This document shows, in pieces, positions 6,083 to 64,000 of a stretch of DNA of 64,000 bases (its first letter is position 1; the number at the start of each line of letters is the position of its first letter). This stretch comes from Octopus vulgaris (taxonomy: Eukaryota). The position numbers and the translations under genes are program-made. Where the stretch lies: positions 5,084,001 through 5,148,000 of the forward strand of contig OX597839.1 of assembly GCA_951406725.2 (NCBI GenBank). The letters are read 5' to 3'. The notes under the pieces were generated by a model that was not told the DNA's origin, made no database searches, and was given only the letters and a program-made list of their open reading frames with translations.

Positions 6083-6566
6083 ATATTAAATTAGAGATAA
6101 AACCACTATTAGGCAAATCAAACAATGAAAATCTTAAGCCAATACATAAAATTAATTAATTTATATTATTTTAAATATATATCAAAATTATTAAACGTTT
6201 AATAAAAGATAATGAGTAAAACACTACGATCATTTCATGGCTGTCCAATTCGTAATAATTCGAGTTATGGTTACTGAAGATTGACTGTAACCATAACTCG
6301 AATTATTACGAATTGGACCGCCATGAAACGATCGTAGTGTTTTACTCATTATCTTTTATTAAACTTTTAATAATTTTGATATATATTTAAAATAATATAA
6401 ATTAATTAATTTTATGTATTGGCTTAAGATTTTCATTGTTTGATTTGCCTAATAGTGGTTTTATCTCTAATTTAATATGATATAATATTTTACTATAAAA
6501 TTGGATTCAATCCTAAATCTGAATTTTCCCTGTAAGTTTGGATTTATTCCCTAATATTTTATTATA
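6083..6566. mobile_element. Fold-back element (192-bp arms, 12-nt loop, one-sided tail) with a degenerate HHR
   Basis: 6083-6274 is the reverse complement of 6287-6478; CTGAAGA at 6274-6280 and GAAACGATCGTA at 6325-6336; tail motif TTTGGATTT..TTCCCT recurs near 13845 and (reverse) near 25045; (TA)n on both sides. Confidence 0.75.
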
Positions 6567-6887
6567 TATATATATATATATATATAATATCTTGGAGCTT
6601 TGACATTTCACTGTTGTGGTAGTTTATTTTTATAATGACATTGTAGAATAGTTGTGAAGGTCCAGATCTGCCCACTTTGAACATGTAGCAAATATAATAT
6701 TTTAGCTAGTTTTGGCCGATTTAAATGTTAAAGGGTTCGGAAAAACATGAAAAATATGGATGATTGTAAGATTTGACCGGAAACCTTGCGCAATGCAATT
6801 GTTTTCTATAAGAATGTAAGTCCACAGAAACTACAGACATACACGAGGGGAAAAGATTAAAAAGGCAGATACACAGACACTTATTTG

Positions 6888-7042
6888 CAGGCTTGGCTTT
6901 GTGGTTAAGACGCTTGTTTTGCAACCACATGTTTTCGGGTTCAATCCCACTAGCAACAAGTGTCTTCTGTTATAGCCCTGAACCACAAACGCCTTTCCTT
7001 TTCAGTGAATTGTACAGAAAGGAACTATGTGGAAGCCGGTAA
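6888..7042 (+). mobile_element. SINE family C, degenerate 5' half
   Basis: Aligns to the 5' half of 58284-58700 (CAACCACATG..CGGGTTCA.TCCCACT..CAAGTGTCTTCT). Confidence 0.65.
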
Positions 7043-7320
7043 TATATATATATATATATATATATATATATATATATATATATATATATATATATATATA
7101 TATATATATATATATGTATATATATATATGTATATATATATATATATATATATTACTCATATGTAATGGTGTATTAAAGTATGGATTGAGTATCATCGGA
7201 TAGTTGATGTTTTACTGATTTAAGTATGTTTCTCCATTCTCTAATTTTGTATATATATATATATATATATATATATATTACCGGCTTCCACATAGTTCCT
7301 TTCTGTATATATATATATAT

Positions 7321-7673
7321 TTCATCAAAAACAATTAAGATTAAAAATAATTCAAATGAATTCAAATGAATATGGTACTTAACTTAGATGCATCAAGATT
7401 CTCTATGGTATTAACCATAAAATTATCTGGGGTGATTATAACCATGGAAAAAGCAACAAGAATGGATCGGTAGATTAGTACCATTGTTTCATACTAAAAA
7501 CATTTAACTTAATATTACAGCAAATAAGAATATATAGAAAACCTATATGTGATTTAGCTGATGAATACTTGACATTATATTTGCTGTAATATTTGCAGCT
7601 TGAAATTAAATGTTTTTAGTATGAAACAATTGTACTAATCTACCGATCCATTCTTTTGCTTTTTTCTTAGTTT
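7321..7673. mobile_element. Fold-back HHR element, family H1
   Basis: About 7449-7527 is inverted to about 7578-7665; the tail 7350-7445 is the reverse complement of tails at 21135-21222 and 32672-32762; (TA)n-flanked. Confidence 0.75.
7551..7640 (+). ncRNA. Type I hammerhead ribozyme, canonical core, short palindromic stem III
   Basis: TTAG-CTGATGA-ATACT-(48 nt)-AGTAT-GAAAC-AATT-GTA-CTAA; stem I TTAG/CTAA, stem II ATACT/AGTAT; predicted cleavage after 7634. Confidence 0.75.
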
Positions 7674-7729
7674 TATATATATATATATATATATATATAT
7701 ATATATATATATACATACATTCTTTTAAA

Positions 7730-7860
7730 TGTTTACTTGTTTCAGTCATTTGACTGCAGCCATGCTGGAGCACTGCCTTAAATGGATTTAGTCAAAGAAA
7801 TCTACCGCAGGAATTTATTCTTTGTAAGCCTACTACTTATTCTATGGGTCTCTTTTGCCG
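7730..7860 (-). mobile_element. SINE family C, 3' end
   Basis: TACTTGTTTCAGTCATTTGACTGC.GCCATGCTGGAGCAC is the reverse complement of about 58638-58678. Confidence 0.75.
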
Positions 7861-7981
7861 AGATCAAATATAGGAAAAATTATGATAAATGCAATGTACT
7901 GCTTTTATTAGTTCTTTCTCTACGTACGTGTCGATATTGTAATAATTTCTAACTTTTGCTGTAGATGTTTGTTTGTTTGTT

Positions 7982-8283
7982 GAGCGAAGCGGTCTTCGTG
8001 GGAGAAGTCCAAAACGTGGTCCTTTGCTATTCGTAAGACCAGCAGAAGAGAAAGCAGGTCAACCCCCCGACACCGAGAGCATCGACGGATGGATGAATGT
8101 GCATCCAGGCTCAGCGATTGTGTAGGAAGTCGGGGGACAAGAAACAGGAAGAAAGAGTGAGAGAAAGTTGGAGCGAAAGAGTACAACAGGGGTCGCCACC
8201 ACCCCCTGTTGGAGTCACGTGGAGCTTTAGGTGTTTTGGCTCAAGAAACACACACAACGCCCTGGTCTGGGAATCGAAACCGC
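7982..8283 (-). mobile_element. SINE family A2 (family A head, alternative 3' half), 5'-truncated
   Basis: Collinear with 60246-60525. Confidence 0.8.
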
Positions 8284-60579: not shown

Positions 60580-61106
60580 TGTTGTTGCTGCTCTAAAGGG
60601 TTCATACGGCTATAGTTATTACAGCTAGTGTTACAGTTGTAATAACTGTTTCTACTAGTTGTAGTAGTAGTATTAGTGGTGGTGGTGGTGCTGGTTGTGG
60701 TGGTGGCGTGCCTACAGCTATTAATGTGATTGGTGAGGGAGAACATTGTATTATTATCATATAAACAAATCGGAAATGGTATACTTAAATTTAACCGTCG
60801 TATAAATAAACTAGAAACACTATACATACATAAAACTCTCATATAAAAAATACAAATGATTTAATCACATATAACTGTGCAACAAACAAAGCAGAGATGT
60901 TGGTAGATGTAATTCCGCTATCAAGATTTGAATGACCCGATGCTATAGTAGAACTCAATTACTCAAGATGTCGTTCAGTGTAACTGAATGTGGAGCCATG
61001 TGGTTAGGTTAGGAAACAAACTTTTTTTCCCACAGCTAAGCATACATATTAATCACCTATTTTCTACAAGACTTCACGTTTTGCGCCCTTTATAACTCGG
61101 GACGCC

Positions 61107-61324
61107 CTTCGGTCACGACACTGACCATGGGATTGCACCGAGAAAGTTACCCTCCTCGTCACAAGTCTGGGCAAGGTGGTTTATGGAAGACGAGCAGTCG
61201 CCCATGCATACCGGCCTCACCTCTCCACGACGCCACCAGTGATATCCAAGCTCGATAACAATATTCGAACTCACAACCTCACGATCGTAAGTTCGACGCT
61301 CTAACCACTGAGCCATGCGCCTTC
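61107..61324 (-). mobile_element. SINE family D, internally deleted
   Basis: Minus strand GAAGGCGCATGGCTCAGTGGTTAGAGCG..GTGAGTTCGAA; the 3' half matches 21276-21390. Confidence 0.75.
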
Positions 61325-61404
61325 ACTATTTTATAACTACTGCCTTACTAACATATAGAACAAGCCAATATGGACTTTTCAGATTTCGGAGTATTCTATA
61401 ATAC

Positions 61405-61627
61405 CCGTGAGCAGACAAGATTTCAAATGCAATTTGCCGAAGGACAAGAAGCCGAACGGACACTATGCCGAACGGAACTAAAAACCGGACGGATATATTA
61501 ATAAAAAAAATCCTACCTACATGATTGAATTTTCGTATGTTTTTTCGGCATCTTGTCCTTTCGGCATTGTGTCCGTTCGGCTTCTTAGCTTCGGTTTCTT
61601 GCCCTTGGGCATCTCGTCGGTGTACGA
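61405..61627. mobile_element. MITE-like element with ~15-bp subterminal repeats in inverted orientation
   Basis: AAGAAGCCGAACGGACAC.ATGCCGAA (about 61446) is inverted to TTCGGCATTGTGTCCGTTCGGCTTCTT (about 61560). Confidence 0.6.
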
Positions 61628-63394
61628 TATTTCCAGAATAGTAGTTTTGCCTGAGGATTGCCAATTTCAGAAAGGCATTAATTAGTAAAACATGAAACTC
61701 AGAGACATGGCGTATGTTACAAAGTATTGTATCATTTATATATAGTTCACTCTGCTCAGGTATTGATTACACTACTTTGTTCATGTACAATCCTTTATAT
61801 TCTATATATTCATACACATACATACATTCATATATATATATATATATATATATATATATATATATATATATATATATATATATATTATATTTATCCTATT
61901 TCTGCAATTTCGGTATGCAAATTCTAGTTCATTGTATTTGTATACAATAGCGATTGAATTGGTTTAAATTGAATTAAATCGACGAAGAAATGCAAAACGA
62001 AAGTGATAATAATAATAATAATAATAACAATAATAATAATAATAATAATAATAATAATAATAATAATAATAATAATAGAATAATTCTTTTATTCTTTTTT
62101 TACTTTTTATCCTAGTTTTTCTCTTCAATTCTGGAGAATGTTCGTGAAATCATTTCATTAATTCTACAATATTGTGTCAATTTTCATATTTTCCTATTCT
62201 TTTCTGTTCTTATGGTTTCTCAATTCTTTCTCTGTACATCACACATTTCTTCAAATATATATCTGTCTATCTATTTATTTCATTGTGATGCGCTTTCACA
62301 ATATTTTTACTGTTTTTTGTTTTTTGTCCTACCTTATCATCAATAACGTCTATATTCCATTAATTTTGTATATATATATATATTATATATGTATGTATGT
62401 GCATATATATGTGTGTATATAAATATATGTACATATATCTTTGTGTGTATACATGTATATGGATAAGAGTTATGAATATATATGAATAAATATGTTTATA
62501 CATACATGAATACATTTGTATACATACATGCACATACATAAATACAAACATATATATGCGTGTGTTTGTGTGCGTACAAATATGTAGAACAGCAATACAT
62601 ATGCACACATATATATGCATACATATATATATATATATATATATATATATATATATACATGCATATTCATACATATATATATATATATATAAATATACAT
62701 GCATATTCATACATATATATATATATATATTATATATAAATATAATTATATATATATATATAAATATAATTATATATATATAAATATAATTATATATATA
62801 TATATATAAATATAATTATATATATATATAAATATAATTATATATATATATAAATATAATTATATATATATATAAATATAATTATATATATATATATAAA
62901 TATAATTATATATATATATATATATATATATATATATATACACACCGAAAAAAATCAGGAACAAAACAAGCTAAATTAATTTATCCAGACAATTTCCTTT
63001 AATATGCAGCTTAAATTTACCACGTTTGTCATTGTCCGTATCTTTCACCATCTCCTCTCCATCCTCATTATCTCTTCCAAGGATTCTATTTAAAGCTAAA
63101 TCTAGTGCCCTTCATTCTAATTCCTCTGTCACATTTTCTCTTCCTCTCTCTCTCTTTTCCTCATTTTTATTATTTTTTTTTTCTCGCTTTGTCTATGTCA
63201 GTGAACAACCCAAATTATTTTATGAAATATATTTATTCTCGGCGTGGATGCCGTCGTGTGATTACGAAGCTAGATGTGCAACCAGGCGGCTGCAGTCAAC
63301 TGGTTTGGAATCACTACGCGGCACATAATGCACGTGCTTTTTGCCCTGGGCCTAGGACCAATGGATGACTTAGGAGTAGATTTAGTAGTCAGAA

Positions 63395-63823
63395 ACATAC
63401 ATACATACGTAAATACATACAAACATACACACACACACAAGCATATATGCATACACACAGAAGTATATGCATACACAGATACATACATACATACATACAT
63501 ACATGAATACATACATACATACATGCATGCATACATGCAAGCATACATACATACATACATACATACATACATACATACATACATAAATACATACATACAT
63601 GCATGCATACATACAATTATACATACATACGTACATGCATGTATACATACATGCATGCATCATACATGCATACATGCATACATACATGCAAACATACATG
63701 CATACATACATACATAACATACATACATGTATACATACATACATGCATACATACATGCATACATACATACATACATACATACATACATACATACATACAT
63801 ACATGCATACGTACATACATACA
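63395..63823. repeat. (CATA/CATG)n
   Basis: Read directly from the sequence. Confidence 0.95.
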
Positions 63824-63828
63824 TGGCC

Positions 63829-64000
63829 AGCGCCATGATAGATCGATAGCCATTACACATTTTTTCTCTCCTTGTTTTCTGTGTTCCTTTCTGTAGAAGA
63901 GCGTAGGCTCGAAACGTAAAATACTTTTTCTATTCCTCAGCGTTATAATAATACATCTGTATGTTTTGTACACCACCTGCCTTCGTCTTTTGTTTTTTTC
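63829..64000 (+). mobile_element. Repeat family H3 with a minimal HHR at 63888-63921
   Basis: TTT-CTGTAGA-A-GAGC-GTAG-GCTC-GAAA-CG-TA-AAA; the element runs off the window end. Confidence 0.75.

Follow-up and report, generated by a model that had tools for sequence, protein, structure and literature searches.

Hammerhead-shaped motifs in the window

We analysed a 64-kb window of the Octopus vulgaris genome (positions 5,084,001 to 5,148,000 of contig OX597839.1, assembly GCA_951406725.2) that holds a series of short repeats carrying hammerhead ribozyme (HHR)-like motifs, which, for four repeat families, we trace to the ends of Penelope-like elements (PLEs). The window is 33% GC and 34% simple repeat, and lies within the 2.8-Gb genome (227 contigs) that we searched. 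An initial annotation of this DNA had listed about a dozen HHR-like motifs, and when each was searched against the genome, 11 of the 12 fell into HHR-shaped repeat families, which we designate A (with subfamilies A1, A2 and A3) to F.

Four of the sites belong to families A and B. The motif at 6274 lies in a family B fold-back (6087..6564, + strand), a Hydra-type PLE end between (TA)n runs that comprises an inverted arm (6087-6276), a direct arm (6274-6474) and a one-sided tail (6475-6564); the HHR core is at 6274, cleavage is predicted after 6336, and the 5' strand of stem I is gone at the inversion. The motif at 7551 lies in an A1 fold-back (7319..7675, +; inverted arm with tail at approximately 7319-7526, direct arm at 7530-7675), whose HHR (core 7558) is intact, with a long loop II and a palindromic loop III. 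At 12625 we found a solo A2 end (12590..12741, +; core 12629) with a copy-specific G5C change, the listed genomic relatives having a normal core. The site at 21024 is an A3 fold-back (20481..21222, +; core 21028), with a direct arm and tail at 20956-21222 and an inverted arm (20481-20550 and 20894-20961) that is split by a family D insertion.

This nested family D fold-back (20551..20891, +) carries its tail on the inverted arm and is flanked by a 13-bp target duplication (20538-20550 and 20894-20906). The sites listed at 20692 and 20761 are the two arms of this one fold-back (palindrome 20603-20899), with cores at 20768 (+) and 20734 (-) that are both G3-C8. Three further sites are solo PLE ends of family C with A6U cores: 28071 (27974..28163, -; core 28102), 48217 (48187..48352, +; core 48222) and 63888 (63831..64000, +; core 63891), the last ending approximately 12 bases beyond the window in a (TACA)n run. 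Both remaining family members are old and decayed in the window, namely a copy of family E at 24865 (24851..24971, +; core 24872; 80-91% identity) and the HHR-shaped repeat of family F at 14142 (14126..14174, +; core 14142). The exception among the 12 is an HHR-like string at 50497 (50497..50540, -; core 50532), which has a weak stem II and is not supported as a family; a genome search with it returned only itself.

The initial annotation had described several unrelated families, many of them in inverted-repeat elements, with a short stem III set in a palindrome. The loop III palindromes match that description. A1, A2 and A3 are related subfamilies rather than unrelated families; and B, A1, A3 and D are fold-backs, whereas A2, C, E and F are present in the window as solo pieces.

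We searched the window with a descriptor of type I HHRs that allowed at most one mismatch to the core CUGANGA and required stems I and II of at least 4 bp (3 bp in a looser setting), with 12 dinucleotide block shuffles of the window as the null. There were 4 matches, against 0.17 ± 0.37 in the shuffles, and 6 against 0.83 ± 0.99 at the looser setting, so the motifs are in excess of shuffled sequence, a comparison that the initial annotation had proposed. The descriptor recovered the cores at 7558, 12629, 28102 (-) and 48222, and that at 63891 only at the looser setting; it missed the remaining listed sites because their cores are variant or damaged. In approximately 1.04 Mb of family loci, chosen via the families themselves, we found 57 distinct HHR matches, against 1 in shuffles. 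The canonical core (CUGANGA...GAAA...UH) is present in the family majorities of A1, A2, A3, B and F, and is altered in C (U6), D (G3-C8) and E (an extra base). Among 32 hand-picked copies of A1-A3, both partners vary in 5 of 13 pairs, with the loop III palindrome among the places where this happens, and 91% of alignment cells are paired, compared with 23-61% in slid controls. Minimum free energy folds of monomers have the HHR shape in C and D, but not in A1 or B. The Rfam hammerhead model gave no match at the gathering score, and the Rfam rows shown at E ≤ 10 include no hammerhead, only microRNA matches driven by microsatellites or hairpins. At the level of sequence, these data confirm that the motifs are real minimal type I hammerhead-shaped motifs of a known kind, with predicted cleavage. 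Standard descriptors and Rfam miss hammerhead-shaped families that are present in high copy number.

Continuity with Penelope-like elements

Other genomic copies of families A, B, C and D run upstream into remnants of a reverse transcriptase (RT) and a GIY-YIG endonuclease that are collinear with the element 3' end and lie on the same strand. In family A, LYRDD, CNCR, CELC and the HHR follow one another on one strand (loci L212, L221, L223, L228 and L229), and a CxCx5C linker precedes the endonuclease; DKT, a modified DKG, is also present. Family B is linked to an open reading frame (ORF) with DKT and a CxCx5C linker in loci L387, L389 and L390; its RT segment is 47% identical to that of family A, and RT clusters are among the Atlas hits. 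The endonucleases of both families contain CxxC and CxH motifs. At the position of the N-terminal RWK motif, family A has RW followed by I, and matches in family B are not placed in the ORF. Judged by DKT, the linker and the CxxC and CxH motifs, A and B fit the definition of the Hydra clade. In family C, GTRMG, RYIDD, YIGQT and the HHR occur in this order in L257, and in part in L249, L238, L242 and L258; L238 has a CX4CxxC linker. For family D the ORF link comes from L266 and L267; L267 has an RT, a CX3CxxC linker and a Pfam GIY-YIG match (E = 2.3e-5) above the cut-off. C and D thus both have the Neptune/Nematis-type linker, CX2-5CxxC before a C-terminal GIY-YIG. Because of the collinearity with RT and GIY-YIG remnants, the HHR pieces in A-D appear to be ends of PLEs rather than separate retrozymes. 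The Penelope origin and the link to Penelope termini put forward in the initial annotation are thus upheld. Its proposal of separate non-autonomous, retrozyme-like families is not, given this continuity and copy ends that do not fall at the cleavage site; some mobilisation in trans may occur.

The decayed RT pieces have only weak RT matches in NCBIfam. An RT family at L034 showed no tie to the family C HHR by itself; the tie came from other loci. A tblastn search of the window with five ORF pieces gave no match. In L389 a family B 3' end with tail lies upstream of the ORF on the same strand, and we found no complete, intact unit of an ORF between two pseudo-long terminal repeats (pLTRs).

In all families examined, the 3' end is fixed and, with or without a tail, runs into a microsatellite. 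A microsatellite lies within 22 nt of most tail-less 3' ends (C 23/27, D 15/21, B 19/21, A2 17/17, A1 14/15, A3 3/3), compared with 16% of random window positions, which supports the (TA)n targeting suggested earlier. On their 5' side, many also carry an inverted copy, with an inversion point that differs from copy to copy. Copies end upstream and downstream of an uncut ribozyme, and not at the predicted cleavage site. PLE insertions have been described as truncated at the 5' end, accompanied by a truncated copy in inverted orientation, and tailed at one of their ends (Craig 2021, PMC8557442, Fig. 2), and the anatomy that we observed agrees with that figure and with the description in Arkhipova 2013.

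We made three further observations on PLE ORFs in this genome. A very young PLE family distinct from B (L146-L169, e.g. G000:C2:195738500-195746500) has 96-100% identity among its top 40 copies. It contains RT and GIY-YIG motifs as well as direct repeats spaced by 4.6 kb, and its hammerhead-like end appears to have a U3-A8 core. In one inverted pair (L374 and L375, G000:C8 near 45.09 Mb), A2 N-terminal ORF sequence is fused to the 3' end; this copy, found at a single locus, would have arisen by internal deletion or by splicing. Hydra-type ORFs in L120, L134, L269, L273 and L387 contain long asparagine-rich (AAT)n stretches between the thumb and the endonuclease, which resemble the N-rich inserts described for rotifer Penelopes (Arkhipova 2013).

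Clustered 5' ends and intron loss

The 5' ends of copies in families B, C and D cluster upstream of the uncut ribozyme. We counted by hand the first 100 of 873 family D matches: upstream sequence is kept in 3, and the others begin within a few bases of one point, approximately 20 nt before the core. Sixty of these copies have AG at the start; a templated C precedes the AG in 20, and a G precedes it in 32 of the other 40. RTs of elements that lack long terminal repeats (non-LTR RTs) can copy the cap as an extra G. In family C, 5' ends cluster at an initiator-like sequence approximately 60 nt before the core.

Long copies of family B have, in order, the endonuclease stop, a GT donor, approximately 1.07 kb of sequence, a segment of 26 nt, another GT donor, an intron of 885-904 nt and an AG acceptor 11-12 nt 5' of the HHR core. 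We classified by hand the junctions of the first 100 of 362 acceptor matches. Exact joins to the 26-nt segment account for 60 and exact joins to the upstream donor for 6; in 27 the intron is still present, and the remaining 7 are of other kinds. The intron is thus cleanly absent from 66 of 100 copies, with two different donors. In none of the 12 loci examined of 43 is the upstream donor joined to the 26-nt segment, and for this reason the segment is less likely to be a micro-exon than a first exon that follows a start site. Each of the three family B subfamilies includes both spliced and unspliced copies, and splicing therefore happened repeatedly. L307 and L314 contain endonuclease motifs together with a spliced junction; in L299 one join is 4 nt shorter. 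We rejected microhomology deletion as the cause of intron loss, since the joins are exactly at GT-AG from two donors. The exact intron loss suggests that these copies were likely made from spliced RNA.

The pLTR of Drosophila virilis Penelope has been described as having a start, a short exon and an intron whose acceptor adjoins HHR helix I (Schostak 2008, PMC2377424), and Penelope is described as retaining the intron in genomic copies (Schostak 2008, PMC2377424; Craig 2021, PMC8557442). Retention has been attributed to an antisense or unspliced template (Arkhipova 2013) or to selection against intron-less copies (Schostak 2008, PMC2377424), and the significance of PLE introns has been called unknown (Craig 2021, PMC8557442). 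Our literature search found no report of spliced or intron-less PLE copies. With hundreds of spliced and unspliced insertions in the same subfamilies, family B provides material with which PLE intron retention can be tested.

Variant ribozyme cores

We counted exact matches to the core patterns of families C and D in the genome, and base frequencies by hand in the first 100 rows in contig order. The family C pattern has 16,707 matches; U6 is present in 96, C3 in 99 and G8 in 96 of the rows counted, and N7 is approximately 43 U, 24 A, 21 C and 12 G. The family D pattern has 5,252 matches, with G3 in 97, C8 in 96 and C3-G8 in none. The G3-C8 pair is kept across several loop II variants of family D, which has a stem I of 7 bp, a stem II of 5 bp and a U17 triplet, and whose top copies are 97-100% identical. 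In families C, D and F, positions 9 and 10.1 are separated by an additional base; A and B have loop II inserts of 34-49 nt, and in A3 and B the 10.1-11.1 pair is U-U. In the family E majority (loci L317-L330) an additional pyrimidine precedes U4, and stem I is displaced by a single base. Motifs that combine a U3-A8 core with CCGG as the loop III palindrome are also present (L170:1330, L170:1080(-), L175:7211(-), L018 and L205), so that C3-G8, U3-A8 and G3-C8 cores occur side by side in the same genome.

Natural U3-A8 hammerheads and a slow A6C hammerhead have been described (Perreault 2011), as has the U3-A8 swap in PLE hammerheads (Cervera & de la Pena 2014, PMC4209133). An engineered C3G/G8C pair partly rescues cleavage (Frangieh 2024, PMC11167929), and partial rescue by engineered G3-C8 is also described in PMC3884650. 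By analogy with A6C, we predict that A6U lowers activity in family C. We found no natural G3-C8 or A6U hammerhead in a literature search, a provisional result, since Lunse 2017 or Arkhipova 2017 may report these cores.

Proposed mechanism and alternative explanations

We consider it probable that the motifs lie in the pLTRs of at least four protein-coding PLE families, and that the short pieces are partial cDNAs copied from RNA of the elements themselves, which would be capped, often spliced and not cleaved, and not from self-cleaved RNA circles. The pLTR would hold an RNA polymerase II start, and its RNA would be capped and often spliced. The endonuclease would nick (TA)n, and the RT would prime internally at one of two sites, the end or the tail end, as in the anole element PAc. 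It would then run to a premature stop or to the 5' end of the RNA, sometimes adding a G by copying the cap, and second priming or fold-back would build the inverted arm. RNA from the 5' pLTR of a tandem unit could act in cis; for RNA that starts in a solo pLTR, the only route would be in trans. For PAc, an internal RT start accounts for the tail, uncleaved RNA is the substrate, and HHR mutants have no effect on insertion in vitro (Frangieh 2024, PMC11167929). The ribozyme would not be needed for insertion; it would cleave weakly, as a dimer via the palindromic loop III, or with protein help. Such dimer or protein-assisted cleavage is plausible, given the palindromes (Cervera & de la Pena 2014, PMC4209133). 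If the ribozyme is dispensable for insertion, G3-C8 and U6 cores would be free to spread.

Several observations weigh against this account. Every ORF-bearing copy that we saw is broken, and no intact full-length ORF was found in any family. The decayed RT pieces match neither Pfam RT models nor PDB entries, and were called from motifs and the Atlas hits; the families were placed by their motifs, and the ORF links are those of A, B, C and D. The covariation that the initial annotation had proposed as a check is present, but it comes from three or four lineages of subfamilies; 5 covarying pairs are also reached in 97 of 500 shuffles, and RNAalifold folds the A1-A3 alignment into an inner loop II hairpin without the HHR. 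As for the 5' ends, those of family A look scattered, the inverted arm could have supplied the template for the G in at least 8 of the 32 extra-G cases, and the family D cluster follows a branch-point-like and an acceptor-like sequence, and so might instead mark splicing to a very small exon. Finally, 3 of 30 family C loci contain 2-3 units head to tail.

These tandem units favour the alternative that the short elements are self-standing, non-autonomous, retrozyme-like families, processed by the ribozyme (as dimers, possibly circles) and mobilised in trans by Penelope proteins. Short copies do far exceed ORF-bearing ones (16,707 family C core matches, and few loci that reach an ORF), solo-pLTR RNA could move only in trans, and animal retrozymes have been described as derived from pLTRs (Li et al. 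2026, bioRxiv 10.64898/2026.07.22.740005). However, the 5' ends lie upstream of the core and the 3' ends far downstream, away from the predicted cleavage site; the window copies are solo or inverted; the splice state is independent of subfamily, so that spliced copies arise repeatedly rather than from one lineage; and A6U in family C is predicted to lower activity. We regard this explanation as improbable, and the retrozyme model as describing at most a minority of copies. We give almost no credence to the idea that the fold-backs are DNA transposons resembling miniature inverted-repeat transposable elements, or assembly artefacts, with motifs arising by chance. Long inverted repeats in a TA-rich setting and the nested copy with its 13-bp duplication speak for it, but it is refuted by the RT and endonuclease links and the exactly spliced copies, and the variable inversion point, the fixed 3' end and motif counts above those of shuffles, both in the window and in the family-selected loci, also stand against it.

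A further alternative is compatible with a PLE origin and differs from the mechanism above in catalysis only. The ribozymes of C and D could be dead relics, with core changes fixed by drift in a few sources and a shape kept by youth or by a role in promoter function or protein binding. The in vitro insertion of PAc HHR mutants (Frangieh 2024, PMC11167929), the reduced activity described for A6 changes (Perreault 2011), and the U17 triplet and near-identical top copies of family D are all consistent with such decay. Yet G3-C8 requires two transversions that jointly restore the 3-8 pair, and it persists in copies that differ in loop II; in family C, N7, a free position, is alone in varying over four bases, with C3, U6 and G8 fixed. 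On balance, we think it unlikely that these ribozymes are dead, though the possibility deserves to be taken seriously. A bolder reading, which we consider less likely than not, is that this genome holds thousands of natural, active G3-C8 and A6U hammerheads, cores that otherwise are known as engineered mutants if at all, and that its PLEs retrotranspose capped, spliced, uncleaved sense RNA in bulk. If so, PLEs would retain introns because of selection on copies able to move again, not because of an antisense or unspliced template. The approximately 16,000 A6U and 5,000 G3-C8 cores are natural experiments on whether cleavage matters.

Relation to known systems

Minimal HHRs of type I within pLTRs of endonuclease-containing PLEs have been described, with thousands of dispersed copies, single or on opposite strands, interpreted as truncated PLEs (Cervera & de la Pena 2014, PMC4209133). 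The octopus motifs resemble these in their short helix I, the extra base at 9/10.1 (C, D and F), the palindromic loop III, the thousands of dispersed copies and the several consensus families per genome. They differ in that D has G3-C8 and C has A6U, whereas the part of that paper concerned describes U3-A8 and neither of the other two, and in the 34-49 nt loop II inserts (A and B) and the U-U pair at 10.1-11.1 (A3 and B).

Families A and B share DKT, CxCx5C, CxxC/CxH, the HHR and (TA)n insertion with Hydra-clade PLEs as described by Craig et al. 2021 (PMC8557442). Unlike these, the 3' regions of A and B span 1.2-2.5 kb and B has introns with spliced genomic copies, the placement being by motifs. 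Families C and D share with Neptune and Nematis PLEs the linker before a C-terminal GIY-YIG and the microsatellite bias, but carry variant ribozyme cores; the match to either clade is by the linker. Family B is like D. virilis Penelope (PMC2377424) in having a pLTR with a start, a short exon and an intron, and an acceptor beside HHR helix I; unlike Penelope, in which the intron is retained, two thirds of the sampled copies are spliced, with two donors and an intron of approximately 0.9 kb. As in anole PAc (PMC11167929), the tail would mark two RT start sites.

In one published definition, retrozymes consist of units in tandem, of which two or more carry a complete hammerhead (Li et al. 2026, bioRxiv 10.64898/2026.07.22.740005). 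No copy in the window has this arrangement, and the three tandem family C loci elsewhere would have it. The octopus repeats are like non-LTR retrozymes (Li et al. 2026; PMC7761336) in being non-coding and pLTR-related, with a type I HHR and a few family C tandem arrays, but they are mostly solo or inverted, have ends away from the cleavage site and are continuous with ORF-bearing copies. We conclude that the overall system is known, and that, provisionally, the G3-C8 core of family D, the A6U core of family C and the spliced insertions of family B go beyond published finds. These details bear on two questions about PLEs, namely why introns are kept and what the ribozyme does.

Other features of the window

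Three fragments of the same families are present in the window in addition to the HHR-like sites: a family B 3' end with tail and without an HHR (25007..25147, -), a tail-only fragment of family D (32559..32602, +), and a family A 3' end with tail and a small 5' palindrome, again without an HHR (32638..32787, +). A general repeat search of the window was swamped by microsatellites. Other dispersed repeats of 200-400 bp, which are probably SINE-like (resembling short interspersed nuclear elements), fall into families with several copies each: 2610-2834, 28620-28855, 29275-29510 and 55629-55859; 551-934 and 59837-60217; and 23740-24151, 37660-38021 and 58283-58677. A near-perfect palindrome around a (TA)n core at 53364-53507 is the source of spurious Rfam microRNA matches.

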